Below, piece after piece: positions 5,223 to 23,589 of a DNA stretch of 30,071 nucleotides (position 1 is its first letter; each line of letters starts with the position of its first letter). The DNA is from a virus. The notes under the pieces are model-generated. The model did not search any database, was not told the DNA's origin, and was given only the letters and a program-made list of their open reading frames with translations. The position numbers were made by a program, and so were the translations under genes. The DNA lies in the IMG/VR virus record IMGVR_UViG_3300007520_000004, one strand, 5' to 3'.

Positions 5223-5516
5223 ATGAGAACAGAAAAAGAAATCAAAAAATTGATAGCTGAGTTCAAACCACCTATCAAAAAAGCTAAAAGCGTCATCAAT
5301 GATATGAGGGTAAAGCTACACAAGTACAACGGGAAGGATAGAGAAGCTGCAAGCGAACGGCTCGAAGTTCTCGATACATTGGTGCTTCATTGCGTTGCTA
5401 TGCAAGTAGAAATGAATGATATGGAAGAGGAGTATCATCGAGTACTATTAGACTCAGCAAATCTTAGAGTGCAATACGTGGCAGCTAAGTGGCTTATAAA
5501 AACAAGCGGTTATTAA
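5223..5516 (+). CDS. Hypothetical protein (97 aa)
   Basis: The ORF starts 1 nt after the helicase stop. No recognisable motif. Confidence 0.55.
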   Translation: MRTEKEIKKLIAEFKPPIKKAKSVINDMRVKLHKYNGKDREAASERLEVLDTLVLHCVAMQVEMNDMEEEYHRVLLDSANLRVQYVAAKWLIKTSGY

Positions 5517-5546
5517 AAAAAAATTAGCAAGTTTTAAAAAAAGAAT

Positions 5547-7968: not shown

Positions 7969-8150
7969 CTAACGAACTAGAAGTAGAGGTAAGAGAGATG
8001 CATAAACAAAAGGGCGGTAGGCTTAGCAGAGAATTAAAGCCTGAGTTTATTAAGTTGTGTAGGGAGGACTTTAACGCTAACCCCGATATGGAATGTGGCA
8101 AGTGCATTTACAAGCACGTGATAAAACTTTACGATAAATATTTTAAATGA
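7965..8150 (+). CDS. Hypothetical protein (61 aa)
   Basis: ATGA-coupled on both sides, between the glycosyltransferase and the ParB-like gene. Confidence 0.5.
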   Translation: MTNELEVEVREMHKQKGGRLSRELKPEFIKLCREDFNANPDMECGKCIYKHVIKLYDKYFK

Positions 8151-8659
8151 TAAAGATAAAAGACATAAAGACCAACCCAAACAATCCCAGACTTATAAAG
8201 GATGAGAAGTTTGCAAAATTAGTCAAATCCATAAACGAGTTTCCTAAGATGATGGAGCTACGACCTTTAGTGGTTAATGCAGACAATATGATTATAGGCG
8301 GAAATATGCGTTTTAAGGCAATTAAAGAGCTTGGGTATACTACCATACCAAAAGAATGGGTAAAGCGAGCAGACGGGCTTACAGAGGGCGAGACAAGGCG
8401 ATTCATCATAGCGGACAACGTAGGCTTTGGAGAACACGATTGGGATATGCTGGCGAATGACTTTGATGTAAAGGAATTAGAAGATTGGGGTCTTGATGGT
8501 TTTCCGTTTGAAAATGTGGCAGACGAGCCTAAGGACTTGTCTGACGACTTAAGAGAAACCTTCGAGGTTATAATAGAATGCACCTCAGAAAGAGAGCAAG
8601 AGCAAGTGTTTAATAGTATGATAAAAGATGGATACAAATGCCGAGTTTTAACATTATAA
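8147..8659 (+). CDS. ParB/Srx N-terminal-domain (ParB-like nuclease domain) protein
   Basis: DIKTNPNNPRLI, RPLVVNADNMIIGGNMRFKAIKELG, RRFIIADNVGFGEHDWDML: the ParB-N pattern typical of the phage/plasmid type that is often fused to DNA methylases. Confidence 0.75.
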   Translation: MIKIKDIKTNPNNPRLIKDEKFAKLVKSINEFPKMMELRPLVVNADNMIIGGNMRFKAIKELGYTTIPKEWVKRADGLTEGETRRFIIADNVGFGEHDWDMLANDFDVKELEDWGLDGFPFENVADEPKDLSDDLRETFEVIIECTSEREQEQVFNSMIKDGYKCRVLTL

Positions 8660-9339
8660 AAGAAAGTAATCCGACAGAGACTTATAGGGTCTCAAGTGTT
8701 TTGAATATGTTTGATTTAGATATTTCTAAAATAAAAGAACATTTCGAGGGGAATATAGACATAGAAGGTAAAGACTGGAATGTAGGTTTAATAGTTGGGG
8801 GGTCTGGAACGGGAAAATCTACGATAGCAAAAGAAGTCTTTGGCGAAAATTACTTTACTGAAAACATCTACGAGTCCGAAACGGTTATAGACGATATGCC
8901 ACAGGAAAAGAGCGTAAAAGAAATAACAAAAACATTTACAAGCGTAGGTTTTGCATCTCCACCAAGTTGGTTAAAACCTTATAGCGTTTTATCTAATGGC
9001 GAAAAAATGAGGGTGGATTTAGCAAATTGTATTTTGCAGGAAAAAGAAATAATTGTATTTGATGAATTTACAAGCGTAGTTAATCGAGAGGTCGCAAAGA
9101 CTGGCAGCTTTGCAATATCAAAGGCAGTAAAAAAACTAAATAAGAAATTCATAGCAGTAGCGTGTCATTCCGATATTATAGAATGGCTTGAGCCTGATTG
9201 GATTTATAACACTGATGAACAGAGGTTTTTTTTTGCCCTAAAAAATACAAAAGACCAGCTATGGAACTTCAAATCTTTAGGATTGGGAATGAGAATAAAA
9301 AACGAGTTTGGGAAGTATTCAGGAAGTATCACTATCTAA
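8638..9339 (+). CDS. Soluble ABC-type ATPase (single nucleotide-binding domain, no membrane domain)
   Basis: Walker A GGSGTGKST, signature-like LSNGEKMR, Walker B IIVFDEFTS, H-loop ACHSD. The 3' end contains an in-phase T9 run (FFF). Confidence 0.7.
   Translation: MPSFNIIKESNPTETYRVSSVLNMFDLDISKIKEHFEGNIDIEGKDWNVGLIVGGSGTGKSTIAKEVFGENYFTENIYESETVIDDMPQEKSVKEITKTFTSVGFASPPSWLKPYSVLSNGEKMRVDLANCILQEKEIIVFDEFTSVVNREVAKTGSFAISKAVKKLNKKFIAVACHSDIIEWLEPDWIYNTDEQRFFFALKNTKDQLWNFKSLGLGMRIKNEFGKYSGSITI
9226..9234 (+). other. T9 run / U UUU UUU slippery site at the ATPase-GNAT junction
   Basis: TTT TTT TTT lies in phase with 8638..9339. The -1 frame opens at 9219 and is continuous with the GNAT ORF. 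Confidence 0.5.
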
Positions 9340-9755
9340 ATACAAATTTACACCCAGCAGCAGAACAATGGATTGGATTAATTAACGGTGAATTGGCTTG
9401 TCATACTGGTATTATTCAGTTTCCAATGCGTAAAGGGTGGAAGCGTGTTCATAGAATGGTTGTGCTACCAGATTACCAAGGTATCGGGATAGGAACGGCT
9501 TTTGAAAATTACACAAGCCAATACTATGCAGATTTAGGATGGAATGTAAATGTAACAACAACAACGCCAGCGTTAGTCCATTCATTATGTAGGTCGAAAA
9601 AATGGAGTTTAGTAAGGGCAAATAGGGTTAAAACAACTTGGGCTAATTTTAAAAAATATAATACAGATGTAGGCAAAGGGAGTAAATCAATGGAAGCTCT
9701 AGCAAAAAATAGCAGTATTAACAGAATAACCTACTCCTTTAATTTTATTAAATAA
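9261..9755 (+). CDS. GNAT-family acyltransferase
   Basis: RMVVLPDYQGIGIGTAF is the GNAT motif A (Q/RxxGxG/A). Overlaps the ATPase ORF by 79 nt in the -1 frame. Confidence 0.7.
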   Translation: MELQIFRIGNENKKRVWEVFRKYHYLNTNLHPAAEQWIGLINGELACHTGIIQFPMRKGWKRVHRMVVLPDYQGIGIGTAFENYTSQYYADLGWNVNVTTTTPALVHSLCRSKKWSLVRANRVKTTWANFKKYNTDVGKGSKSMEALAKNSSINRITYSFNFIK

Positions 9756-9781: not shown

Positions 9782-10144
9782 ATGAGTAAAGAGGACTTAA
9801 TACCATTCAAGAAAGGCGAGAGCGGAAACCCTAACGGCAGACCTAAAGGCGTGCCTAATTCTAAGACTAGGCTACTACGGTTATTAGAGATTACTCAGAA
9901 CGTTAAGAACCCTATCACTGGCGAGCTCGAGGACTTCTCTATTGCTGAGCGTATGGACTTGGCTATATTAAACAAAGCACTCAAAGGAGACATAAGAGCG
10001 TATCAGGAGTTAATGGATAGACTAGAGGGCAAGGCAAGACAAACTACAGACGTTAATCAGGAGATAGTCTACAAATCTTTAGATATTAATATAATAGACA
10101 CGGGCGTACCATTTGCTGATAACGAGAAAGGAATAGTTGATTAA
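9782..10144 (+). CDS. Putative terminase small subunit
   Basis: N-terminal KKGESGNPNGRPKGVPN motif, common in small-terminase-like (DUF5681-type) proteins. Lies immediately upstream of and overlapping terL. Confidence 0.5.
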   Translation: MSKEDLIPFKKGESGNPNGRPKGVPNSKTRLLRLLEITQNVKNPITGELEDFSIAERMDLAILNKALKGDIRAYQELMDRLEGKARQTTDVNQEIVYKSLDINIIDTGVPFADNEKGIVD

Positions 10145-11294
10145 GACTGGTGGGCTATATCGCTTAAACTATAACTCAACCGCTGACATAGTAGTCAATC
10201 AAGGAGGGACAAGTTCTGGAAAAACTTACGCTATCCTCCAAGTTCTATTCAGCCTTGCTATAAATTCAGAATGTACTACCACCGTAGTAGGTCAGGATAT
10301 ACCCAATCTAAAGGTAGGAGCGTTAAGGGATGCCTTAGACATCATTAATGCAGACGAAGCTATCAGGCAGCAGTTAGTGTTTTACAATCGTTCTGAGAGG
10401 GTGCTAAGTTTTCGCAATGGTTCAATCATAGAGTTTAATAGCTATGACAACGAGCAAGATGCTAAGTCGGGTAAGCGAGACTACTTGTTTATAAACGAAG
10501 CCAACGGCATACCCTACAACGTATTCGAGCAACTATCTTTGAGGACTAGAAAGAAAGTGTTTATAGACTACAATCCAGATACTAGCTTTTGGGTACACGA
10601 CAAAGTAATACCGTTAGAAACTACGGAGCTGATAATATCAGACCATAGACATAACCCATTCTTAACTGATAAGACTAGGGCGAAGATTGAAGGGCTGAAA
10701 GATAAGGACCTTGACTTGTGGAAGGTATACGCTCGTGGTATCACTGGACGTATAGAGGGCTTAGTATTAAAGAAATGGTATACTACCACAGAGAGCTTTG
10801 ATGATAAGGAGTTAATCGGCTACGGGATTGACTTCGGATTCACCAACGACCCTACCGCAATGGTAGAAGTAAGGATGCAAGACGGGGAGCTATGGATTAA
10901 AGAGATTATATACGAGACGGGATTAACTAACCAAGATATAAGCAGCAGAATGGAAGTCTTAGATATAAGCAAGGGTACACTTATTGTAGCTGATAGTGCA
11001 GAGCCTAAGAGCATAGAAGAACTTAGACGGCTTCGCTGGACGGTAGACGGTGTAAAGAAAGGAAAGGATAGCGTTATGTTTGGGATTAATCTATTGAAGG
11101 GTTACATTATAAACGTAGACGCTAAGAGTAAGAATTTAATAAAAGAACTTGAGCAGTATCGCTGGAAGGTAGACAAGAATGGAGACGGTCTAAACGTCCC
11201 TATTGACACCTACAACCACGCAATAGATGCTCTTAGATATTTAGTGATGCACAAATTTAGTAAAAAAGGATACGGAAAATATTATGTTATATGA
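10137..11294 (+). CDS. terL: Terminase large subunit (PBSX / Terminase_3-like)
   Basis: Walker A-like GGTSSGKTYAIL, Walker B-like DYLFINEA, and nuclease-domain patterns YGIDFGFTNDPTAMV and DTYNHAIDALRY. TTG start. Confidence 0.85.
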   Translation: MIKTGGLYRLNYNSTADIVVNQGGTSSGKTYAILQVLFSLAINSECTTTVVGQDIPNLKVGALRDALDIINADEAIRQQLVFYNRSERVLSFRNGSIIEFNSYDNEQDAKSGKRDYLFINEANGIPYNVFEQLSLRTRKKVFIDYNPDTSFWVHDKVIPLETTELIISDHRHNPFLTDKTRAKIEGLKDKDLDLWKVYARGITGRIEGLVLKKWYTTTESFDDKELIGYGIDFGFTNDPTAMVEVRMQDGELWIKEIIYETGLTNQDISSRMEVLDISKGTLIVADSAEPKSIEELRRLRWTVDGVKKGKDSVMFGINLLKGYIINVDAKSKNLIKELEQYRWKVDKNGDGLNVPIDTYNHAIDALRYLVMHKFSKKGYGKYYVI

Positions 11295-11868
11295 TTTAAC
11301 AGTTGGTCAATACCAGCTACTTAACGAGATAGACGAGGAGCTATCAATGATTGAGCAGAACATCTATGCAGTGTCTGCAATAAAGGGTATAACCTACGAA
11401 GAAGCTAGCAGGATAAAGATGACGGAGTTCAGCAAGCTCATAGAAGGTATAAGCGAGTTTAACATTAAGCTACTTGAAAAGCTAAGGATAAACAATTCTA
11501 TTGTCTTAAACGGTGTTAAATACCACGTAGAGCACAAGCCTGACAAACTAAGCAGTGGGCAACTGTTAGACGTTCTAAACATACGGAGCAAGAATCAAGG
11601 CAAAGCCGTAGAGGTTATGGATTTGCTATTGGCTGCTATGGCTAGACCTAAAGGCAAAGAGTATGGAGACGATGGCTTGAATATAAATGAGAGAGCCGCG
11701 TTGATTAGAGATGCTAAACTTTCAGAGGTTTGGAATGTGTTTGTTTTTTTTTGGAATCTTTGGAACAACTACTTCAACGATTCAGAGGACTCTTTAACAA
11801 AGTGGATGGAGGAGACTCCGAAGAAAGTGCAGGAGATTTTGGACAACGATGGGGATTATTCAGCATAA
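11284..11868 (+). CDS. Hypothetical virion-assembly protein; 0-frame product of a candidate G/GT-type frameshift pair
   Basis: 194 aa. Contains a T9 run at 11744..11752, with a -1 frame open from 11718 to 11993. Confidence 0.45.
   Translation: MLYDLTVGQYQLLNEIDEELSMIEQNIYAVSAIKGITYEEASRIKMTEFSKLIEGISEFNIKLLEKLRINNSIVLNGVKYHVEHKPDKLSSGQLLDVLNIRSKNQGKAVEVMDLLLAAMARPKGKEYGDDGLNINERAALIRDAKLSEVWNVFVFFWNLWNNYFNDSEDSLTKWMEETPKKVQEILDNDGDYSA
11744..11752 (+). other. T9 run / U UUU UUU slippery site
   Basis: Codons GTT TTT TTT TGG (..VFFW..) in the 11284 frame. The heptamer T TTT TTT lies at 11745..11751. Confidence 0.5.
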
Positions 11869-11993
11869 TGGCAGAGATGGCAAAATTACACAACATAAGC
11901 ATAGACGGGACAACAAAAATGGGAGCGATTGAGTTTTTAAATTGGTGGGCATACTTAACAGAAAAAGCAGATTATGAGCGAGCTTCAAGATAG
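11868..11993 (+). CDS. Small ORF (41 aa), or the C-terminal part of a -1 frameshift product
   Basis: TAATG-coupled ATG at 11868 gives MAEMAKLHNISIDGTTKMGAIEFLNWWAYLTEKADYERASR. The same frame is open upstream back to 11718. Confidence 0.3.
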   Translation: MAEMAKLHNISIDGTTKMGAIEFLNWWAYLTEKADYERASR

Positions 11994-12516
11994 GTTATTA
12001 GCAAACTTAGATAGCTATTGGCAAAAGATAGTAGACGACCTTGTAAAGTCTCTCTATGACGTGGGAAGGGTAGCGAGTGGTGTAACTGCTCAAAATATAG
12101 GTGCGTTAAATTCAGACCCTATAAAACTAACGGCAAGTGGGTTTAGTGTCATTATTGCAATGCCTGACTACTACCAGTTCTTAGACGAGGGTGTAAGTGG
12201 GGCTCAGTTCAATAAAGGTATATCAAGATTTAAGTATACAGACAAGATGCCGCCTATAAAAGCCATACGAAAGTTTATGCTTAACAGAGGTATTAACTCA
12301 CCTAAAAGAAGCAACACTAAGAGCGGTAAACGCAGAGACGCTGAGAGCATACGCAACGGGATAGCATTTGCAATAGCTCGCAGCATTTGGTCGAAGGGAT
12401 TAAAGAAAACAAACTTCTATTCAAAGGTGATAAACGACAAGCAACTTGAAGTATTTGAAAGACAGTTATTAGAGCAGTACGGAGAATTTATTTTAGAAAT
12501 TATTAGGATAGATTAA
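11974..12516 (+). CDS. Putative HK97 gp10-like head-tail / tail-completion protein
   Basis: VIIAMPDYYQFLDEGVSG resembles the gp10-family ..YA.fvEfGT motif. Assignment is tentative. Followed by a strong terminator. Confidence 0.4.
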   Translation: MSELQDRLLANLDSYWQKIVDDLVKSLYDVGRVASGVTAQNIGALNSDPIKLTASGFSVIIAMPDYYQFLDEGVSGAQFNKGISRFKYTDKMPPIKAIRKFMLNRGINSPKRSNTKSGKRRDAESIRNGIAFAIARSIWSKGLKKTNFYSKVINDKQLEVFERQLLEQYGEFILEIIRID

Positions 12517-12637: not shown

Positions 12638-13891
12638 ATGGCATTAACAATAGAAGACCAACCGACGGCAGCTCTAGTAAGACCCACATTTGCACCAATA
12701 GAATTACTACTATCTACGGATACGGATATATCTCTTGTGTTAGGGTTTAAGATAGTATGCAAGGTGTACTTAGACCCAAACGGAACGGACACACTCATAA
12801 GCACTCAGCAGATATATTTAATTCCTAATACTACGCAAGCAGTGTTTAGCGTTCAGGATGTAATCAAAAGCTATGTGGCAGACTCTTACAGTGTAATCAA
12901 TGGAGATACGGTAGACGTTGCAGAAACGTCCTTAAGTGATTTCAGATTAACCTTTGAGGAATTTTACGACGGGGCTTTGCGAGGAGGTTCAGCAATATCT
13001 AATTTGTTTACTGCGTGGTACGCTTCTCCCTCTTACGTGGAGTTTGCTGCTAACGATTGGCACAACTGGCAGATGAAGGCTGGGGACATAGATAAAGAGT
13101 TCCTTAATGCTTACGGAAACCAAGCGTACAAGTTTACATCCTTCGACCTAAACGACCATTGGTTAAAATTAAAGCCTACACAGAAGTATCAGATACAATG
13201 GCTACAAGAATATACCGCAAGTGATGCAGGAATAGAAATACACTTAGACACCTTTGATAGTAATTTTACAAGCATAATATCCACGACCATAGCAGTAGGG
13301 GCTACTAATGTAGGACACTACTCTTTAGACGTTGGTCCTGCTGAATTAGCTGCTCATTCGTGGGCTGCTAGTGTAGTTATGACAAATGTAAGATACTACG
13401 TTTTGACCGTATTTGAAACCAACGACCCTGACCAAGAGATGAAGTCTATATTGTTTGAGGTAGATAGCTGCGATACAAACTACACACCGTATGAGCTGCA
13501 CTGGCTCAATCACAAAGGAGGGTACGATAGTATGACCTTCGACGGCAAATCAAAAGAGAGTACAAGCATAAACAAGTCGTTTGCAAAGTATGCAAATAGT
13601 AACGTAGTAGGCACATCGTTATCTTATAAAACAAGCAACCAACGTACTAGAGCGTTCCACACGGGTTTAAAAACCAACTACCAATTAAATAGCCGACTAT
13701 TAAAAGACTTCGAGATGCAAGGACTAGCAGACTTATATAGCAGCCCCAGTGTATATTGGAATAGTCCGAATGGCTTTGTCAGCGTCAATGCAGAAATGAC
13801 TACATTCAATAGAGCCAAATCAGAGGACGGTAAAGTCTTTAGCGTGGAGGTTACTATTAGCATAGACAATAGCGACGAGAGACAATGGTAA
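12638..13891 (+). CDS. Virion structural protein (putative distal tail / baseplate-type)
   Basis: 417-aa ORF heading the structural block and coupled to the 944-aa tail protein gene. No catalytic motif. Function inferred from context. Confidence 0.45.
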   Translation: MALTIEDQPTAALVRPTFAPIELLLSTDTDISLVLGFKIVCKVYLDPNGTDTLISTQQIYLIPNTTQAVFSVQDVIKSYVADSYSVINGDTVDVAETSLSDFRLTFEEFYDGALRGGSAISNLFTAWYASPSYVEFAANDWHNWQMKAGDIDKEFLNAYGNQAYKFTSFDLNDHWLKLKPTQKYQIQWLQEYTASDAGIEIHLDTFDSNFTSIISTTIAVGATNVGHYSLDVGPAELAAHSWAASVVMTNVRYYVLTVFETNDPDQEMKSILFEVDSCDTNYTPYELHWLNHKGGYDSMTFDGKSKESTSINKSFAKYANSNVVGTSLSYKTSNQRTRAFHTGLKTNYQLNSRLLKDFEMQGLADLYSSPSVYWNSPNGFVSVNAEMTTFNRAKSEDGKVFSVEVTISIDNSDERQW

Positions 13892-16719
13892 TTGAGCACA
13901 TAATAGCTGGGTATTCAATCCCACACAATGAAGGGGCAATTCCTTTAACCAAAGAAAGCTATGATATTAGAGAGCCGCAAAAGAGGTTGAGCGATTACTC
14001 GAAGACTATTACCATACCTGAAAACAATGTAGTAAATCAAATATTTGAACACGCTTTTGATGTCAATATACTATTCCAGACCTTTGACCCTAATATTAAA
14101 ACAAGCTACCAAGTAGTCCAAGATGGGGTTACTCTAATTAATGGCTTTTGCAGGCTTGTTGACATAGTAAACGTAGACGGTAAGATTGAATACAAGATAC
14201 AAGCGACGGGCAAGATAGGCAGCGTATTCGAGAGCATCAAAGATTTATACCTTACGGATATAGACTTCAGCGATTTGAACCACGTATGGAATGAAGCCAA
14301 TATAGTAGCTGCTTGGAGTCCAACGATAGGCACGGGATATACTTACCCAATGATTGACTACGGAGGGCGTACAAGCTATTCAGCGTGGACGGTAGAAGAC
14401 TTTAAGCCTGCCATATTCGTGAAGGAGTATATGACTAGGATATTCTCAGAGCAAGGGTATACAATTAGTAGTGCCTTTTTTAATACCACCTTATTCAAGT
14501 CTCTGATAGTTCCTTATGCGGCAGACCAAATACCTTTGGATAACGACGGATTAAAGGCAAAGCAGTTCTATGTAACAAGAGAAACTACTGACCAAACCGT
14601 AGGGATAGATGGTATTCTTATATTTAACGACGACATCGCACCCAACTACAACACTGCTTTAAACGAGTACGATATAACAACTGGGATATTCACGGCTCAA
14701 GAGGTAAATATATACGCTTGGCAAGGTGTGTTAGATGTTACATTTACATATACAGAAACAAACACTAATATTACATCAATCATAAACCAAATAGCCAATT
14801 TTCCAAATGGAAGAATGGAGACTGGGTTTTTCATTCAGAAACACGGAGGGGCTACAGTAGATAGCTTTACTGTAGATATAGGTCAATTGATAAGAGACAC
14901 TCCATTAGTTAACGGCAGCACTTACACAATTGAAGCTCCTTTCTCGCTTAGTGATTTTACTACTGTAATAAGCAGCGAATATGCTCTAAGGTGGTTTGAT
15001 AGCTTTACTATATCTGGTTCAAATGGGGGAGGATATTATCAATATTCTTATACAGACTTTTCTGTAAAATTAAACAGAGATAGCATACTTACTCAGAAGA
15101 TAAAAGACACATACTATGCCGAAGGGGATACGATTGTAATGACATCTTTATTACCTAAAGAGGTGAAACAATCTGACTTCGTAGGCTCTATCATTAAGCG
15201 TTTTAATCTGTATTTGGATTACGATGCCATAGATGAAAACTTAATATACATAGAGCCAAGAGACGACTACTACACTGATGTACAAGTAGAGGTGTCTAGC
15301 AAGGTAGACAGGAGTAAGGAAATTGTAATATCTCCTATTGGAGCACTCGATGCAAGTACATATCTATTTGAAGATAAAGAAGATAAGGACGTAAAAAACA
15401 AAAGCTACCAAGATACTACAGAGGAAGTGTACGGCAGATATAAGGTAGATATAGATAATGACTTTATAAAAAACGAAAGTAAGATTACTACTATATTTTC
15501 ACCTACTCCATTGATTAGTGTAGACGGGCAAAACGATAGAGTAATATCTGCTATTCAATTTGAAGACGACAACCAAAAGAAAACGGATGCTAAGGGAAAT
15601 ATTAGGCTCTTATATTGGGGTGGCTTAAAAGCAACCTCTCCCGATTGGACTATTAACGGGACGATAAAAACAACTTACCCATACGCTGGGCACTTAGATA
15701 ATCCCTACGCACCTACGTTCGATTTGAACTGGGGCGTGCCTAAGAAGATATTTTACGACTTCACTTATGGCGGTAATGATATAGTAATCTATCCAAACGC
15801 TAATTGCTATAATACCTTTTGGCGTAATTACATAGAGGAGATTACAAGCAAGGATTCAAAGCTATTGACTTGCTATGTTGCATTGAGACCAGTTGACTAT
15901 GCAGACTACAATTTCAGACAGTCCTACTACATAGACGGGGAGTATTGGAGATTGGTGAAGATAGTAGACTACGACCCTAATAGCTCAAGTACTACCAAGT
16001 GTATATTCTTAAAACAACATTCATTTACTGCATTCGCAGGCACGACTGTGGAAGTTCTAGGCGGTGAGGGTACATATACAGAAACAAATGAGCCTATACC
16101 TAGATTTAATGTAACCAATAGACCAAACGGAAGCGGTGGAAGGCAGGTGGATGTAATAACATTCGGGGACAATGTAGTAAGTGGGTGGCGGTCTATTATA
16201 GTAAGCGACAATATAACGGGAATAAGCACCAATAAAAACCTATTAGTGGTTGGTAGCGACGGCTCTGACATACAAGCGAACAATACAACGCTACTTAACT
16301 CGCCAAATATGGAGGTAATAAGAGACAACGAGATATACTTAAACGGTCTATTTGCTGAAAGTAGGGTGGATATACAACTAGATGAGACATTATTAGAAAA
16401 TCTTAGTGCAGGATTTGAGATACTCCCAGCACTAAGAAGCAATGAAGCTTATGAAATACTGAGGGGATATGTTAGAATGAACGGAGTAAAGCCAACGATA
16501 GGTAACAAGGTTAGCTTTAAAAGCTCAGGACTAGTCACAGAGGTAGCGAGTGTTGCAGATTCTTTCTTTGACACTGACGACAACACGGGATTTGTAACTA
16601 TACCCACGCTTACAAGCCTACTATTTGCAGAAGCAATAAACATATCAGCGGCTGACTTCGAGAGTCCAGCAGCTACTACGGTACAAATACAATTAGTTTA
16701 CAGAATAATTAGAATATAA
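13885..16719 (+). CDS. Large tail protein (putative tail-tip / host-recognition protein)
   Basis: 944 aa, Asn/Thr/Tyr-rich and beta-rich in composition. Lies between structural genes. Function inferred from size and context. Confidence 0.5.
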   Translation: MVIEHIIAGYSIPHNEGAIPLTKESYDIREPQKRLSDYSKTITIPENNVVNQIFEHAFDVNILFQTFDPNIKTSYQVVQDGVTLINGFCRLVDIVNVDGKIEYKIQATGKIGSVFESIKDLYLTDIDFSDLNHVWNEANIVAAWSPTIGTGYTYPMIDYGGRTSYSAWTVEDFKPAIFVKEYMTRIFSEQGYTISSAFFNTTLFKSLIVPYAADQIPLDNDGLKAKQFYVTRETTDQTVGIDGILIFNDDIAPNYNTALNEYDITTGIFTAQEVNIYAWQGVLDVTFTYTETNTNITSIINQIANFPNGRMETGFFIQKHGGATVDSFTVDIGQLIRDTPLVNGSTYTIEAPFSLSDFTTVISSEYALRWFDSFTISGSNGGGYYQYSYTDFSVKLNRDSILTQKIKDTYYAEGDTIVMTSLLPKEVKQSDFVGSIIKRFNLYLDYDAIDENLIYIEPRDDYYTDVQVEVSSKVDRSKEIVISPIGALDASTYLFEDKEDKDVKNKSYQDTTEEVYGRYKVDIDNDFIKNESKITTIFSPTPLISVDGQNDRVISAIQFEDDNQKKTDAKGNIRLLYWGGLKATSPDWTINGTIKTTYPYAGHLDNPYAPTFDLNWGVPKKIFYDFTYGGNDIVIYPNANCYNTFWRNYIEEITSKDSKLLTCYVALRPVDYADYNFRQSYYIDGEYWRLVKIVDYDPNSSSTTKCIFLKQHSFTAFAGTTVEVLGGEGTYTETNEPIPRFNVTNRPNGSGGRQVDVITFGDNVVSGWRSIIVSDNITGISTNKNLLVVGSDGSDIQANNTTLLNSPNMEVIRDNEIYLNGLFAESRVDIQLDETLLENLSAGFEILPALRSNEAYEILRGYVRMNGVKPTIGNKVSFKSSGLVTEVASVADSFFDTDDNTGFVTIPTLTSLLFAEAINISAADFESPAATTVQIQLVYRIIRI

Positions 16720-16721
16720 AA

Positions 16722-18707
16722 ATGTCAGCCAAGAAAATAGCATTAGAACTTCTACTGAAAATAAACAGTAGCGACTTAACCTTAGAAGAATTAAACGACC
16801 AACTTTCGCTCGCCAAGAAGCAGATGGCAGAAATAGGAGACGACGGCAGCGAGGAGTTTGCCGCATTAGGTCAAGTAGTGGCAGACGCTGAGAAGTCAGT
16901 AGAGGACTTTAACGGAGAGCTAACCAAATCAAAAGAAGGCTTTGAGAACACGGGTAGGGCTCAAGAGAAAGCAGCGGAAGGTAGTAATACATTCAAGGGT
17001 GCGATTAAGGGCGTAGGGCTTGCATTTAAAGCAATGGGCATCGGGCTTATTGTTGCTGGGCTTAAGTTCTTCTTTGATGCTCTGAGTAGTAATCAGAAAG
17101 TAATGGACGTATTTAATACGGTTACTGAAGCGATTAGCATTGTAATGAGTAAGCTGGTCACTACTATTATAGATGTAGTTTCTAGTGTGTCTGAGTCCTC
17201 TAATGGATTCGAAGGGTTAAAGAATACGGTAGTAGGTCTGCTTACTTTAGCTATAACCCCTTTAAAACTTGCTTTCTATGCGATTAAATTAGGTCTGCAA
17301 AGTGCTGCCTTAGCTTGGGAAAAATCATTCTTTGGCGGAAACGATGCTAAGAAGATAGCTGAGTTATCATTAGGGATTAAAGAGACTGCGACTGCAATCA
17401 AAGAGACGGGAGAGGAAGCTATCCAAGCTGGTATATCAGTAGCTACTAATATAGGCAAAGCCGCCAGCGAGATAGGCTCAGTAGTTTCTAAAGCGTCTAA
17501 GGCGATATCTGAGATAAGCATCAAGGGAGCTATTGAACAAGCTAAGACTAATGTAGCACTTACTAAATCTGCAGAAATAGCAGCGGCTCAGCAAGGTTTG
17601 TTAGTAGAGCAATATGATAGACTAGCTGAGAAACAGAGACAAATAAGAGACGACGAGCGTAATAGTATAGCCGACAGAATGAAGGCGAACGTACAACTAG
17701 GCGTTGAATTGGAAAAGCAAGAGAAGGCGATGCTCGCTCAGGCTAGCTTGCAAGTAGAAGCAGCAGAAGCACAAGTAAACAAGAATAGTAATACAGAAAC
17801 AGAAACCGCACTAATAGAAGCACTAGCAAATAAGGCTGGAGTACTTGCACAAATAGAGGGTTTTAGGTCAGAGCAGAAAGCAAATGAGCTAGGGTTAAAC
17901 AGAGAGCTACTACAAATGAATGCGGCTTTAGGTCAAAGCGAAGCTGATTTGGCGTACGCACGGGCTAAGTTCGACGCTGAAATGATAGAGGATAAAGTCA
18001 AATCCTTACAAGCCCTTAAAGAACTAGAGGACATTAGGATGCAAGAGGAAATGTTAAGACTTGAAGGAATAGTAGAGCTTGCTAACGCTGGAACTCAAGC
18101 AGAAATAGACGCTCTTATAGCCTTAGACGTATTTAGAGAAGAAAGTAGACAAGCCAATATAAATGCAGACAAAGCATTAAACGCTGAGATAGCAGCTACA
18201 AGTGAGAAAACTAAAGACACAGAGATTAAGAACGCTGAAGATGTTAAGGCTGCTAAGGTTGCAAACGCTCAGTCTGCTGTAGCAGCACTAAACGGATTGG
18301 CAGACATATTAGCACAAGGTAATGAGAAGCAACAAAAGAAAGCGTTTCAGATTAATAAGATTGCTAGTATAGGTAATGCAATAATCAACACTGCAACGGG
18401 TGTGACTAAGGCGTTCGCTGAAGGTGGTGTTGCTGGATTTGCAACGGGTGCAGCGGTAATCGCAGCAGGTGTAGCTCAAATAGCTACTATCTCAAAAACT
18501 CAATACAAAGGGGGCGGAACAGTAGACAATGTGCCAGATGCTCCTAACTTAGGAGGAGGAGATGTAGGAACACAACCTCGAGGTTTTACAAGCCCAACTA
18601 CCAACATAAGCCAGCCGCCTACTAAGGTAATAGTAACGGAGACAGACATAAGAAACGTCACTAGAAATGTGGACGGTGTATATAGTAGAGCAATAGTAGT
18701 TCAATAG
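16722..18707 (+). CDS. Tape-measure-like protein (alternatively an internal virion protein)
   Basis: 661 aa. Hydrophobic segments (GVGLAFKAMGIGLIVAGLKFFFDAL; VVGLLTLAITPLKLAFYAIKLGL), a long Ala/Glu/Lys/Gln-rich coiled-coil centre, and a Gly-rich C-terminus. Confidence 0.5.
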   Translation: MSAKKIALELLLKINSSDLTLEELNDQLSLAKKQMAEIGDDGSEEFAALGQVVADAEKSVEDFNGELTKSKEGFENTGRAQEKAAEGSNTFKGAIKGVGLAFKAMGIGLIVAGLKFFFDALSSNQKVMDVFNTVTEAISIVMSKLVTTIIDVVSSVSESSNGFEGLKNTVVGLLTLAITPLKLAFYAIKLGLQSAALAWEKSFFGGNDAKKIAELSLGIKETATAIKETGEEAIQAGISVATNIGKAASEIGSVVSKASKAISEISIKGAIEQAKTNVALTKSAEIAAAQQGLLVEQYDRLAEKQRQIRDDERNSIADRMKANVQLGVELEKQEKAMLAQASLQVEAAEAQVNKNSNTETETALIEALANKAGVLAQIEGFRSEQKANELGLNRELLQMNAALGQSEADLAYARAKFDAEMIEDKVKSLQALKELEDIRMQEEMLRLEGIVELANAGTQAEIDALIALDVFREESRQANINADKALNAEIAATSEKTKDTEIKNAEDVKAAKVANAQSAVAALNGLADILAQGNEKQQKKAFQINKIASIGNAIINTATGVTKAFAEGGVAGFATGAAVIAAGVAQIATISKTQYKGGGTVDNVPDAPNLGGGDVGTQPRGFTSPTTNISQPPTKVIVTETDIRNVTRNVDGVYSRAIVVQ

Positions 18708-18747: not shown

Positions 18748-19884
18748 GTGGACTTGCCTTTAATTGAATTCAAACTTAGCGATGATGTCGAAGGACTGCA
18801 AGCTATTGCTTTCGTAGATACTCCAGCCATTGGCTTGAACTACCAAGCGTTTGCAAATCAAAAGTTTGAAATTATCAACGAGGACAAGAGAATAGTAATG
18901 GGTGCAGCAATGATACCCGACTTACCTATTTATCGTAGAGACGAACGTGGTGAGTACTATGCAATCTTTAAAAAGGACACTATCAAAGCACTCGTGCAAA
19001 AGCTATTTAAGGAGAATAAGCATAATAACTTTAACGAGCAACACAACGCATTTAAGATACTTGATGGCGTTTATATCTACCAATCATTCATAACAGATGC
19101 AGAACTAGGCATATCAGCCCCAACGGGCTTTGAGAACGTAGCAGACGGCACGTGGTTCATAGCCGCAAAAGTAGAGAATGATGAAGCGTGGGAGAAGGTC
19201 AAGAAAGACGGTATATTAAAGGGCTTTAGTGTTGAGGGTGTGTTTGACTTAGAGCCGTATAAATTTAAAAAAATGAATAAAATAAACTTAGAAAACGTAA
19301 TCAATACGTTGAAATCTGTGTTCGCAGATACTGAGGATGTAGTAGTCGAAGAAACTTTCGGTGAAGCTACCTTAGTAGACGGGACAATCGTAAAATGGGA
19401 AGGCGAGCTTGTAGAAGGTGCTGCCCTTATAGTAGTACTACCTGAGGGTGAAGTAGCGGCTCCCGATGGGATACACGAACTAGAAGACGGTACTATACTA
19501 GAGACTGCTGGCGGTCTTGTAGTAAGTATCCAAGCAATAGGCGAGGAGGTTATAGTAGAAGATAACGAGTTCACTACTGAAATGCTAGATACTTTAATCG
19601 AGAAGGCTATGGCTAAGTATGCAGAAGCGTTTACTGCTTCTTTGGATTTAGTACGTTCAGAGAATGAGGGTCTGAAATTAGAATTAGCTTCTATTTCTGC
19701 CGCTAAGGACGAAATGAAAAAGGAGTTTACTGCCACTCTAAACAAGGTGGGTGTAGAGTTGGAGGAGATTGCTAAGACAGAAGTGTCTACCGCGTCTAAG
19801 CCGCAAGAGTTTAAAGCAACCACAAGAGCTGAAAAGGCTGCTAGAATGGGAGCAATTATTAGAGCAAATAAAATAAATAAATAA
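18748..19884 (+). CDS. Prohead protease (XkdF-like) fused to a scaffold-like coiled-coil C-terminus
   Basis: N-terminal half: AIAFVDTPAIG, IVMGAAMIPDLPIYRRDE.GEYY, FNEQHN, WFIAAKVENDEAWEKVKKDGILKGFSVEG (XkdF-type pattern). Acidic/helical C-terminal half. Immediately upstream of the capsid gene. GTG start. Confidence 0.55.
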   Translation: MDLPLIEFKLSDDVEGLQAIAFVDTPAIGLNYQAFANQKFEIINEDKRIVMGAAMIPDLPIYRRDERGEYYAIFKKDTIKALVQKLFKENKHNNFNEQHNAFKILDGVYIYQSFITDAELGISAPTGFENVADGTWFIAAKVENDEAWEKVKKDGILKGFSVEGVFDLEPYKFKKMNKINLENVINTLKSVFADTEDVVVEETFGEATLVDGTIVKWEGELVEGAALIVVLPEGEVAAPDGIHELEDGTILETAGGLVVSIQAIGEEVIVEDNEFTTEMLDTLIEKAMAKYAEAFTASLDLVRSENEGLKLELASISAAKDEMKKEFTATLNKVGVELEEIAKTEVSTASKPQEFKATTRAEKAARMGAIIRANKINK

Positions 19885-19892
19885 CAAAAAAA

Positions 19893-20840
19893 ATGAGTTT
19901 TGATGTATCAGGATTAACGGACTACGTTAACCAAAACAGCACCGACCTTATCTCAAGATTATATTTTGAGAAAACGTCAAGCGACTACTTTACCCTACAG
20001 TCAGGCGTGAAGAAAACAGATGCCTTGCATCTATTATCAGTAACTGCCTTCCCACAAGACGGTAGCGGTTGCTCTCCATCTGCTTCGGGAGATGTGAATT
20101 TCACGGATAGAGATATTACAGTAGGTCAAATCACTTACTTTAGTGGTTTCTGTATGAAGGATTTAATCCCTAAGTATACTCAAATGCTTTTAGCTGCTGG
20201 TAATGCAGAGACTGAGTCTGTGAGTTTTGAGGCTGAAATAGCTAATAACATACTCTCTACTATAATGGAGCAGAACGAGACTGCTGACTGGCAAGGGGAT
20301 ACTGCAAGTGAAAACGTATATATCAATAGATACGACGGTCTTATAAAGACGATTGATGCTGCAGCTACTGCCGTAGATGGCAATACTGCTGGAGTAACTG
20401 TTGCCACTGGTATAACTTCGGGAGCTTCGGGAAATGTTGACACTATCATAAAGGATGCAGTGAACGCAAGACCAGCTAAACTAAAGAACGCTGCAAACCA
20501 AGTTCTTTTTGTAGGTCAAGACGTGTTCGACAAGTATGTAGATACTTTGAATGCAAAAAACTTATTCCACGTAAACGAGACTGAGTGGGCTGATTACGTT
20601 ACTAAGGTAGTAGGTAAGAATGTTAAACTTGTTGGAGTTGTTGGACTTGACGGCACAGACAGAATGTTCTTAGGAACTCAAGAGAATTTCTTCTTAGGTT
20701 TTGACTTACAAAACGACGAAGAGGAGTTTGATATGTGGTACGAGAAGAAAGACGACAAGGTTTACTACAGAGTTAAATTCAAGAGAGGTTTGCAAGTTGC
20801 TTACCCTACTGAAATTGTTGAATTTACATTAGTACCTTAA
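19893..20840 (+). CDS. Major capsid protein (HK97-fold expected)
   Basis: 315 aa, directly after the protease/scaffold gene. Belongs to a two-gene unit closed by the strongest terminator in the genome. Confidence 0.6.
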   Translation: MSFDVSGLTDYVNQNSTDLISRLYFEKTSSDYFTLQSGVKKTDALHLLSVTAFPQDGSGCSPSASGDVNFTDRDITVGQITYFSGFCMKDLIPKYTQMLLAAGNAETESVSFEAEIANNILSTIMEQNETADWQGDTASENVYINRYDGLIKTIDAAATAVDGNTAGVTVATGITSGASGNVDTIIKDAVNARPAKLKNAANQVLFVGQDVFDKYVDTLNAKNLFHVNETEWADYVTKVVGKNVKLVGVVGLDGTDRMFLGTQENFFLGFDLQNDEEEFDMWYEKKDDKVYYRVKFKRGLQVAYPTEIVEFTLVP

Positions 20841-21422: not shown

Positions 21423-21785
21423 ATGGACATAATAACAAAAAATACAACTAACTATATTTATTGCAATATCTCAAACGAGGTTGTCAATGATTACTACACT
21501 ATGACCATTACAAGTGCTGAGTACACGGTTAACGTGACGTTAGCAGCACCTTTAAGCGTTAATGGTAGGTACGTGTCATTTACACTAATAGAGGGCGTAC
21601 AAGACCTTACAAACGCTACAATAGCTCTACCGAACAACGGGGACTATCCTTACGAGATTATAAACGCTACAACATTAAGCGGAACTACTGGAGTAGTAAT
21701 ACAAAGGGGCATATTAAGACTAAAACAAGCAGCAGAGGTGGTATATTCTTACACGGACGAGCAGACTACATTTATATATGAGTAA
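21423..21785 (+). CDS. Hypothetical virion-module protein (120 aa)
   Basis: The ORF starts 3 nt after the terminator T run and overlaps the portal start by 8 nt. Confidence 0.5.
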   Translation: MDIITKNTTNYIYCNISNEVVNDYYTMTITSAEYTVNVTLAAPLSVNGRYVSFTLIEGVQDLTNATIALPNNGDYPYEIINATTLSGTTGVVIQRGILRLKQAAEVVYSYTDEQTTFIYE

Positions 21786-23589
21786 TTTTCCAATAATAAC
21801 ACAGTTTACATCGGCAGAAGTGCCAAAGTTCTTAGAAAAAAAGAGTCAAAACATAGTCTATTTCGGAGCGGACAACTTATATCCCTTTGAATTAATAGAC
21901 CTATACAACGATAGCAGCACCCACAACGCTATAATCAACGGCAAGGTAGGCTATATAGTAGGAAACGGACTTGAAAGTGAGGACTTGAATACTAAGAAAT
22001 GGCTATCAGCTGCCAATATAGATGAGGATTGGACAAGTTTATTAAAGCGTTTATCGTTAGACTATGAGCTTTTCAACGGATATGCTATTGAAGTAATCAG
22101 GACTACGGCAGGAAACCAATATCACCACCTAGATTTTGCCAATATTCGCTTAGGATTAGACGGTGGCATTCAGTATTCAGATAATTGGATAAGCGAGAGC
22201 GGTACAAGAACCTTTAGACCATACATCCAGCACTTAGAACGGTACAACCCAGCTAACTTAGAGCAGAAAAGAGGTGTTATATATCACGTAGATTATAGAC
22301 CCAACCTTAAGTACTACCCGTTGCCCGTATATGTAGGCTCTTTAGCTGAGATAAAAACGGATGTGCAGATAGGAGATTATTGGCTAAACGAGGTAACCAA
22401 TGGATTTGTAGGTGGTACGCTTATTCAGCATAACAACGGAGTACCTGAGACGCTAGAAGAAAGCAAAGAATTTGAGGATGCGTTTAAAGATAAGTTCGGT
22501 AAAGCAACGGGAACTAAAATAGTACACCTATTCTCGCCTTCTAAGGATAACGCATCAGAGATAAGTAACTTAAACGGGAACGACCTACACGAAAGATACT
22601 TAGAGATGAGTAACCGAGTGAAGGAGAGTATATTCATAGGGCATCGAGTAACCAACCCGATACTTTTCGGAGTAAAGGAAGCTGGGCAAATGGGGGCTAG
22701 AAATGAGCTTGACTTAGCGTATGAGATATTTACCAATACATATATAGCTGAGAGACAAAATACACTATTAAGGACTATCAAGAAATTAGCGTTCTACGAG
22801 ATACAAACTTCCGATATAGAGATTATACCCTTAAAGCCGATTGATACAATAGACTTGACGAGTGATATAATATTAAGTAACTTGACCAGAGCGGAGATAA
22901 GACAACTTATAAACGAGCAAAGCGGATTAGAGTTAGAGGAAGAAGTAGTGCCAGTAGAGACTGCTATGTGTAGCCACTTCTCAGATGATGAAGATATAAG
23001 CCACTTATTCGACAAGATAGGAGTAAACGAAGATGACTACGAGGTAATAGATTGCCTTGATATTTGCTTTGATACTGACGGCAGCCCAGTTGAGTTCGCT
23101 GGTGAAAGTATTATTAGAAAGGTATTAAAAGCTATCTTAGACAATCCTTTAATAGTAGCAACTGGAATATCTAACTTATTGAAATTAGATTTTAGTCAGT
23201 TATTAGGTTCTATCAACGTACTTGCAACTTCAAACCTTATAGAAATAGAAGGCAGTAATATTGCACTTACTCCATTAGGGGATAAGGTTGCTAAGACAAT
23301 AGACATACCAAAAGCAGAGATTATGTACAAGTATGAGTTAAGACCTGATGCACCTGCATTGGCAGAGGGTGGTAAGAGTAGAGACTTTTGCAGAAAGATG
23401 GTATCTAAAAAGAAGCTATACTCTAAGAAAGAAATAGAGGTACTTAGAAATGATATGAAGCCAAGTGGATTTGCAGATGTTACAGACGTTTGGTTATCTC
23501 GTGGCGGTTGGTATAGAAGAAAGGGAACGGACACTTCTATTCCTTATTGTAGACATACTTGGAAGCAAGTAATAGTGAGAAAGAAATGA
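21778..23589 (+). CDS. Portal protein with a C-terminal MuF/SPP1 gp7-like extension
   Basis: 603 aa. N-terminal FGADNLYPFELIDLYNDSSTHNAIINGKVGYIVGNG is portal-like. The C-terminal ~170 aa end in SRDFCRKMV...RGGWYRRKG..IPYCRHTWKQ (Cys/His motif like head-morphogenesis domains). Confidence 0.55.
   Translation: MSNFPIITQFTSAEVPKFLEKKSQNIVYFGADNLYPFELIDLYNDSSTHNAIINGKVGYIVGNGLESEDLNTKKWLSAANIDEDWTSLLKRLSLDYELFNGYAIEVIRTTAGNQYHHLDFANIRLGLDGGIQYSDNWISESGTRTFRPYIQHLERYNPANLEQKRGVIYHVDYRPNLKYYPLPVYVGSLAEIKTDVQIGDYWLNEVTNGFVGGTLIQHNNGVPETLEESKEFEDAFKDKFGKATGTKIVHLFSPSKDNASEISNLNGNDLHERYLEMSNRVKESIFIGHRVTNPILFGVKEAGQMGARNELDLAYEIFTNTYIAERQNTLLRTIKKLAFYEIQTSDIEIIPLKPIDTIDLTSDIILSNLTRAEIRQLINEQSGLELEEEVVPVETAMCSHFSDDEDISHLFDKIGVNEDDYEVIDCLDICFDTDGSPVEFAGESIIRKVLKAILDNPLIVATGISNLLKLDFSQLLGSINVLATSNLIEIEGSNIALTPLGDKVAKTIDIPKAEIMYKYELRPDAPALAEGGKSRDFCRKMVSKKKLYSKKEIEVLRNDMKPSGFADVTDVWLSRGGWYRRKGTDTSIPYCRHTWKQVIVRKK

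Follow-up and report, generated by a model that had tools for sequence, protein, structure and literature searches.

A run of nine thymines as a probable programmed -1 recoding site between the ATPase and acetyltransferase parts of a phage gene

The viral DNA of IMG/VR record IMGVR_UViG_3300007520_000004, a stretch of 30,071 nucleotides (nt) hereafter called the window, carries an open reading frame (ORF) for an ABC-type ATPase followed in the -1 frame by an ORF for a GNAT acetyltransferase, and the two frames meet at a run of nine T's (T9). We propose, with a probability of about 85%, that this T9 is a programmed -1 recoding site of some kind at the ATPase/GNAT junction, from which the ATPase alone and an ATPase-GNAT fusion would both be obtained. 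The proposal is built on the anatomy of the junction, its conservation, the phase of the slip site, the missing conserved start codon and the coding signature of the -1 frame, all of which are observed directly. A preliminary description of the same DNA had put forward a -1 frameshift or transcriptional slippage joining the two frames, and the comparative data presented here support it.

The ATPase/GNAT junction of the window

The zero-frame ORF (8638..9339, + strand) encodes 233 amino acids (aa), of which residues 1-199 form an ABC-type ATPase domain with Walker A (GGSGTGKS), signature (LSNGEK) and Walker B (IIVFDEF) motifs, as indicated by a Pfam ABC_tran match (3.6e-09) and by matches to ABC nucleotide-binding domains of the PDB in both sequence and fold. 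The conserved part of this ORF ends with ..NTDEQR FFF, and the three in-frame Phe codons are the TTT TTT TTT of the slip site (9226..9234, + strand), within which a slippery heptamer of the X_XXY_YYZ type, T_TTT_TTT at 9228-9234, lies in the phase of the upstream frame. The preliminary description, which had placed the run in phase with the ATPase frame and read it as U UUU UUU, is exact to the base. The run also has the length, about nine or more A or T residues, that is expected of a site of transcriptional slippage.

Upstream of the run, a TGA at 9216..9218 (+ strand), 7 nt 5' of the first T, closes the -1 frame, which opens at 9219 and meets no stop until 9753-9755, that is, through the whole GNAT ORF, just as had been described. 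The zero frame continues for 34 codons after FFF and then reaches the TAA at 9337-9339, the stop reported earlier as lying 35 codons on. From 9234 to 9755 (+ strand) the -1 continuation (CPKKYKRPAMELQ... to the stop) encodes a linker and a GNAT acetyltransferase domain recognised by Pfam Acetyltransf_1 and by phrog_11143. A -1 shift would join 8638-9234 to 9234-9755 and give a fusion with the junction FFF-CPKKYKRPAMELQ and a length of 372 aa, in agreement with the ATPase-GNAT product of about 372 aa predicted beforehand. In the unshifted product the conserved part is followed by a zero-frame tail of 34 aa (9235..9339, + strand; ALKNTKDQ...SITI and the stop), which both its identity and its codon-position variability mark as non-conserved. 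The mechanically annotated start of the GNAT part, an ATG at 9261..9263 (+ strand) opening a 164-aa ORF, is likewise not conserved in relatives; counted from it, the ATPase/GNAT overlap covers the 79 nt (9261..9339) that had been noted.

On the + strand T9 runs are found at 9226 and 11744 only, each at an overlap with a downstream ORF in the -1 frame, which bears out the earlier statement that the two such runs both lie at ORF overlaps. The sole A9 of the window (5515-5523) starts inside the stop codon of the ORF 5223-5516 and runs into intergenic DNA, with no ORF overlap. The number of T9/A9 runs, 3, is not unusual: dinucleotide shuffles contain 2.0 on average, and 3 or more occur in 32 of 100 of them; hence the weight of the case lies in position, phase and conservation in relatives.

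A family of fused proteins

Taken as one protein, the conceptual 372-aa fusion aligns with phrog_11143 in a single stretch (fusion residues 9-371 on profile positions 6-349 of 357, E=3.5e-95). Pfam matches both ABC_tran and Acetyltransf_1 on it, and with its N-terminal ABC domain, C-terminal GNAT domain and full-length profile match it has the make-up of the COG2401 / phrog_11143 family. More than 5,600 homologues of the fusion were found, many natural fusions of 350-373 aa being among them, and close relatives bear the JGI name 'ABC-type ATPase with predicted acetyltransferase domain'. Among the matches listed at 75% identity or above, all but one natural fusion, P0001, are called as ATPase-only ORFs of 231-233 aa. 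The fused architecture is the norm of this family, the fusion being its ancestral, family-typical protein.

The AlphaFold (AF2) model of P0001, which is 78% identical, is confident, with a predicted local distance difference test score (pLDDT) of 86.7, and displays an ABC nucleotide-binding domain at residues 1-200 and a GNAT domain at 212-368; the matches by fold are to ABC nucleotide-binding domains and to a GNAT. With the FFF strand (196-199) the ATPase domain comes to its end, and the slip site falls at the end of this strand, ahead of the linker to the GNAT domain, so the model confirms that the junction falls at the end of the ATPase domain, as had been claimed.

Frame of the GNAT part in related loci

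In order to compare the junction in relatives, 80 loci from viral contigs, 80 from genomes and 5 from isolate phages were gathered, and 158 of these had both an ATPase and a GNAT part. Relative to the ATPase, the GNAT frame needs a -1 shift in 102 loci, is in frame in 50 and needs +1 in 6, although these phase counts are taken over loci that are not phylogenetically independent and weigh less in favour of recoding for that reason. The six +1 loci are all one-offs in five clusters at 80% identity: three of these clusters, one of them holding two such loci, are otherwise -1, and the two others are singletons. When clusters at 70% ATPase identity are considered, the -1 form is present in 19 of 29 and spans phages, Bacteria and Archaea. 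The slip site or a functional equivalent is conserved across the homologues, and in relatives the -1 frame likewise opens a few codons 5' of it, as a by-product of the NTD(D/E) codons. Homologues with unrelated junctions, without a homopolymer or an open -1 frame, had been named in the preliminary description as the result that would speak against recoding; the comparison clearly did not yield them.

Within the clade of the window the run itself is stable. T9 in the same arrangement is shared by four contigs with ATPases 94-96% identical, whose IMG/VR identifiers assign them to four metagenome datasets. Altogether T9 with the -1 arrangement occurs in 16 distinct junction sequences, from independent metagenomes and across 65-96% protein identity, compared to two T10 and one T8, and in the alignment it is invariant in 15 of 15 clade members, around which the flanking codons vary. 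The two T10 relatives (L084, 78% identical, and L069) are natural in-frame fusions reading FFFCAGE...

These observations bear first on a sequencing or assembly error, the preliminary description having considered that a true T10 read as T9 would simply mean a single fused gene. Homopolymers are error-prone on some platforms and T10 relatives do exist, as just mentioned. However, the four nearly identical contigs all have T9, as do 16 distinct junctions in total, and the -1 shift is also needed at short runs (T7, T6C) and at heteropolymers in finished isolate phage and bacterial genomes, among which the -1 need is seen in S. pyogenes prophage 315.4, Lactococcus phage P335, Oenococcus phage Vinitor-27 and the chromosome of Alicyclobacillus sp. 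ALC3. Moreover, the second T9 of the window, treated below, behaves alike and is conserved. The T10 option is excluded by these data, and an error at this run must be considered extremely improbable.

A change at the DNA level is the next explanation to be weighed, either as a switch in which a hypermutable contingency tract would be off at T9 and on at T10, or as a recent frameshift pseudogene. The in-frame T10 and A10 variants, the rare T8, T6 and A8 found among relatives, and the additional variation of one oral-metagenome clade at a G6/G7 tract would all suit it. Against this, T9 persists over the whole range of identity given above, the GNAT frame is intact and under coding constraint, the non-repetitive heptamers found elsewhere cannot phase-vary, and the 102:6 bias to -1 is unlike random indels. 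Broad tract-length polymorphism, with on and off states both common, was not found, the four 94-96% relatives being all T9, and we regard a switch or gene decay as very unlikely. As to the G tract, it belongs to a clade that includes HMP-style sample identifiers (L025-L034), in which a variable G6/G7 tract (GAAGTGGGGGG..) lies ~50 nt after the T run and changes the frame again in L026 and L027; one member, L032, has T8 in place of T9. The tract variation in this clade reflects either assembly errors or real tract instability.

Start codons and coding in the overlap

If the ATPase and GNAT parts were two ordinary overlapping genes, the GNAT protein would start at ATG 9261 with no shift at all and the T9 would be incidental. 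This ATG lies just before the first GNAT strand and could start a complete stand-alone domain of 164 aa, which counts against the need for recoding in the window. Some distant Firmicutes phages are indeed annotated in this way, and in two of them, Enterococcus phage 9184 (L187) and Thomasclavelia phage TR-TP2 (L188), whose GNAT part is in the -1 frame, no obvious canonical heptamer was seen in the stretch inspected; the GNAT ORF of phage 9184 has its own ATG. Some lineages, such as these two, may have become two separate genes.

However, in relatives with an ATPase 83-96% identical the ATG of the window is replaced by ATC or ATT. Furthermore, 91 of the 102 loci in need of -1 have no ATG at least 20 codons 5' of the conserved YHYL motif of the GNAT N-terminal region, and 76 of the 102 lack ATG, GTG and TTG alike. 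Independent initiation at 9261 is possible in the genome of the window alone and is not a conserved mechanism.

The overlap itself argues in the same direction, as the conservation of the -1-frame protein reaches back to the slip site. Read in the -1 frame, its variability by codon position (0.26/0.14/0.28) follows the normal coding pattern, while in the zero frame variability peaks at the second codon position; the mean pairwise identity of the overlap peptides is 0.56 in the -1 frame versus 0.45 in the zero frame. The zero frame invariably stops within the codons for YHYL of the -1 frame, and this stop is their by-product. The zero-frame tail is a by-product of the overlap and is under no constraint at the protein level. 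The downstream ORF of these loci is hence one in the -1 frame, without a conserved start, whose protein is conserved up to the shift site. Given also the in-phase slippery sequences described in the next section and a shift direction that is almost always -1, we consider two ordinary genes to be very unlikely. On the comparative data the readings as a miscall, as a pseudogene and as independent genes were all rejected.

Slippery sequences at one domain junction

The slip motifs vary by lineage at one and the same domain junction, and wherever the phase can be judged it is the one suited to the ribosome. Clade members of the window use TTT TTT TTT, NNT TTT TTT (T7) or NGT TTT TTC (T6C, i.e. U_UUU_UUC), with T7 or T6C in the relatives at 70-77% identity. 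More distantly, the Streptococcus and Lactococcus phages (315.4, P335) and a Bacilli metagenome-assembled genome (MAG) have CA G_GTT_TTT. The corresponding G_GUU_UUU is the heptamer used by cardioviruses. Vinitor-27 carries A_AAG_GGC, a Nibrella isolate genome (strain JCM 17927) and a Spirosoma MAG carry G_GGA_AAG, and many Bacteroidota-type phages as well as Bathyarchaeia have runs from A7 to A10. The Bathyarchaeia MAGs (L123-L162; e.g. L135 3091-3145) hold several copies of the module each.

Counts of heptamer phase are uninformative in long runs because every phase occurs within them, and runs of exact length were used for the test instead. Without exception, runs of seven bases and no more lie in phase (19 of 19 distinct junctions with A7, 10 of 10 with T7), and the A9 and A10 runs of other clades occur in several phases. 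By clusters at 80% identity, an in-phase heptamer lies no more than 22 codons from the conserved NTD motif in 37 of the 39 in need of -1, and the other two have a T_TTT_A tetramer; such a heptamer is seen in none of the seven in-frame clusters without a long homopolymer run.

One clade combines a long run with an in-frame junction. In this A10 clade (L035-L083, L092-L115; e.g. L039 3088-3110) about 35 fusions keep CAA AAA AAA AAT AGA at the junction. Since a TAG in the -1 frame follows right after the run, a -1 slip there would give an ATPase-only product.

Ribosome or polymerase

Under the programmed recoding proposed here, unshifted translation would end at 9339 and give the 233-aa ATPase with a meaningless tail, and a fraction of events would slip by -1 on T9 to give the 372-aa fusion, a short and a long form thus being made from one gene in a set ratio. 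In the mechanism that we favour, ribosomal -1 frameshifting, the P- and A-site tRNA-Phe would slip in tandem on U_UUU_UUU (9228-9234). Such slippage on U_UUU_UUN would be the inherited core, conserved in the family. In the clade of the window, lengthening of the run to T9 would have added slippage of the RNA polymerase, with an extra U in part of the transcripts and a higher yield. Indeed, nine T's approach the length of the RNA:DNA hybrid, and the polymerase would on this account very likely insert an extra U in some transcripts. Both routes would lead to the identical protein. That shifting occurs in vivo, how efficient it is and how it is divided between ribosome and polymerase are points we infer from the sequence; within programmed recoding, we put a ribosome-led mechanism at even odds and hold a polymerase-led one to be possible with somewhat less confidence.

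Across the family, ribosomal -1 frameshifting is indicated by the heteropolymeric heptamers, by the seven-base runs with their strict phase and by an archaeal hairpin. The hairpin is found in 22 Bathyarchaeia copies, where a spacer of 7 nt separates an A7 (CGA AAA AAA G) from an invariant GC hairpin of 8 bp downstream (GCCGCCCG...CGG-T-GCGGC), a putative frameshift cassette of classical, textbook layout.

Several results at the T9 site weigh against a ribosomal shift, and in part against recoding at all. RNAalifold on 15 sequences of the T9 clade gave 0 pairs of conserved structure downstream of the run, and the fold of the window downstream of T9 (single-sequence z=+1.3) shows no stable structure. 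In the T7 relatives the downstream sequence reaches -3 kcal/mol with no covariation and no structure. An upstream hairpin or terminator-like element was sought at both T9 sites of the window and not found. The sequence just 5' of T9 is not conserved, no Shine-Dalgarno-like stimulator was found around the run, and neither a downstream stimulatory structure 5-9 nt after the heptamer nor an upstream Shine-Dalgarno-like element is therefore seen at T9. Stimulatory RNA structures are common at -1 frameshift sites and not obligatory. With no RNA stimulator, ribosomal shifting at T9 would be unstimulated and possibly inefficient. Even in the Bathyarchaeia the hairpin never varies and so gains no support from covariation. 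Lastly, a run held at exactly nine T's, at the second site as well as in 16 distinct junctions here, is longer than the ribosome needs and points to the polymerase.

Should the RNA polymerase be the one that mainly slips, which would be a sub-case of programmed recoding, the nascent RNA would realign on the nine-A template, U10 messengers would give the 372-aa fusion and U9 messengers the 233-aa ATPase. Runs of 9 A or T are documented to support efficient slippage of bacterial RNA polymerase (PMC5009743), and the run is of exactly this length. At the second site, moreover, nine is kept in 21 of 21 relatives in a run that starts at another codon position, no RNA stimulator for the ribosome was found, the A9/A10 runs of other clades sit in several phases, and the tract length toggles, as seen from the in-frame relatives with T10 and A10. 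On the other side, T7 and T6C occur in the same clade, polymerase slippage is expected to be negligible there and at the distant heptamers G_GUU_UUU, A_AAG_GGC and G_GGA_AAG, and all of these are in the phase of the ribosome; the archaeal heptamer-spacer-hairpin cassette argues likewise. A polymerase-led site is thus a tentative alternative to a ribosome-led one.

A second T9 run

The other T9 of the + strand, at 11744..11752 (GTT TTT TTT TGG), joins a 194-aa ORF (11284-11868) to an ORF in the -1 frame (11730-11993), and after a -1 shift the product would be 236 aa long. Among IMG/VR relatives at 55-88% identity, 21 of 21 keep both T9 and the -1 arrangement, with strong conservation of the peptide read in the -1 frame (RWGLFSI..AMA.LHNISI.E.TKLGAIEFLNWWAY). 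The run sits in a different codon phase from the one at 9226. Judging by this conservation in relatives, 11744-11752 is a separate and equally conserved putative recoding site. No Pfam or PHROG match was obtained for its product. Because the run comes after the large terminase gene, and the only tape-measure-like match (16722-18707) lies ~5 kb further downstream beyond the ORFs 11974-12516, 12638-13891 and 13885-16719, it might be a frameshift of the tail-assembly-chaperone type, a candidate by its position.

Gene neighbourhood and function

The window is a segment of a tailed-phage genome in which the order is a ParB-N gene (8147-8659), the ATPase ORF, the GNAT ORF, DUF5681 (9782-10144) and the large terminase (10137-11294). 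The ParB N-terminal-domain gene (8147..8659, + strand; Pfam ParB_N 9.2e-07 and several ParB-like PHROGs) is the first of a two-gene module, and its last 22 nt overlap the start of the ATPase (8638-8659; ..KCRVLTL and the stop over MPSFNII). A ParB-like homologue lies directly upstream in 156 of the 165 related loci, from phages, Bacteria and Archaea, hence a conserved two-gene module, often adjoining terminase genes. In most of these, the distance from the end of the tblastn match to the ATPase start equals that of the window, and an equally short overlap is implied. The ParB-like gene and the ATPase may accordingly be a translationally coupled two-gene module.

As regards function, PDB sequence and fold searches returned only generic matches to ABC nucleotide-binding domains and GNATs, and the neighbours of one archaeal and one Alicyclobacillus copy gave no clue. 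No mention of the module was found in look-ups in two papers of the Aravind group made for its function.

The structural genes stand in an unusual order. After the large terminase (10137-11294) come several ORFs without a family match, then the tape-measure-like (16722-18707), protease-like (18748-19884) and capsid-like (19893-20840) genes, and the portal gene comes late in the window (21778-23589).

Discussion

A wider picture, which we offer tentatively, would be that the ParB-like/ABC-ATPase-GNAT genes are a mobile-element module of very wide distribution, occurring in phages, in prophages of bacteria and as multi-copy elements in Bathyarchaeia, and that in this module the ratio of ATPase to fusion is set by recoding, as a dnaX-like two-product system not described so far. 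Lineages would freely swap a heptamer with hairpin, unstimulated U or A heptamers, T9/A9 polymerase slippage and an A10 of reversed polarity, and in the phage lineage of the window one T9 device would serve two unrelated genes.

If the fusion is a real product, thousands of database entries would have to be reconsidered, since they show the gene as two pieces, an 'ABC transporter ATP-binding protein' with a truncated 'hypothetical protein', or start the GNAT part at an arbitrary internal codon. Furthermore, the natural series at one homologous position (T6C, T7, T9, T10, A7 with hairpin, A9, A10 and three heteropolymeric heptamers) would be convenient for studying the choice between ribosome and polymerase and the tuning of the ratio by run length. 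ABC ATPases work as dimers, and a conserved need for the ATPase alone as well as the ATPase-GNAT protein suggests a mixed complex; this would be a starting point for the role of the module, which adjoins the terminase genes in many phages.

The mechanism is of a known kind and was not found described for this widespread ABC-ATPase-GNAT family. Indeed, no slippage is annotated in any of the isolate-phage records inspected for the frameshift-dependent split form, and annotations of COG2401 / phrog_11143 show one fused protein of unknown function and not the split form seen here. Full-text searches, together with targeted look-ups of terms in Antonov 2013, a 2025 preprint, the PRFect paper and the Atkins 2016 review, gave no mention of frameshifting in the family, a coverage that is incomplete and leaves a prior description possible. 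Antonov 2013 (PMC3711429) mentions an 'ABC transporter' GeneTack cluster, which could not be tied to the ABC-ATPase-GNAT family.

Among known systems, the G/GT tail assembly chaperones of tailed phages resemble the present case by a conserved -1 shift at a slippery heptamer and a fixed ratio of short to long product. The gene and the place differ, since the window's site is on the replication/packaging side and adjoins ParB-like and terminase genes.

The slippage run of Shigella mxiE is a T9 as well. In mxiE, transcriptional slippage in a homopolymer gives an extended full-length product from two overlapping ORFs (PMC5009743), as it would here. Unlike the window's gene, mxiE is a chromosomal/plasmid regulator without a family-wide alternation of slip motifs, whereas the relatives of the window use motifs where polymerase slippage is not expected.

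The Mg-chelatase genes (chlD/bchD-type, GeneTack cluster) are alike in more respects (Antonov et al. 2013, PMC3711429): a homopolymer run lies at a domain junction of an ATPase gene with in-frame fused homologues elsewhere, Bacteria and archaea are both concerned, the run length varies (A7, A9, A11), and one gene yields both a short form, the ATPase only, and a long one. For these poly-A sites the shifted product is given there as 10% (A7), 40% (A9) and 63% (A11), a precedent for a yield that grows with the run. Mg-chelatase differs in protein family and biology from the ABC ATPase and GNAT of a ParB-linked mobile-element module, which is known from sequence alone, and in the window's family the slip motif also turns over to T runs and heteropolymeric heptamers.

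The dnaX gene is likewise one ATPase gene with two products, tau and gamma, with and without C-terminal domains, obtained by ribosomal or polymerase slippage according to the species. In E. coli dnaX the ribosome shifts frame at A_AAA_AAG, and in Thermus thermophilus dnaX a homopolymer gives transcriptional slippage. The proteins are unrelated to those of the window, the shift would give the long form in the window and gives the short one in dnaX, and no Shine-Dalgarno-like or hairpin stimulators were found around the T9 of the window. However, dnaX gamma arises from a -1 stop immediately after the slip, and the in-frame A10 clade of the window's own family similarly meets a -1 stop right after its run.

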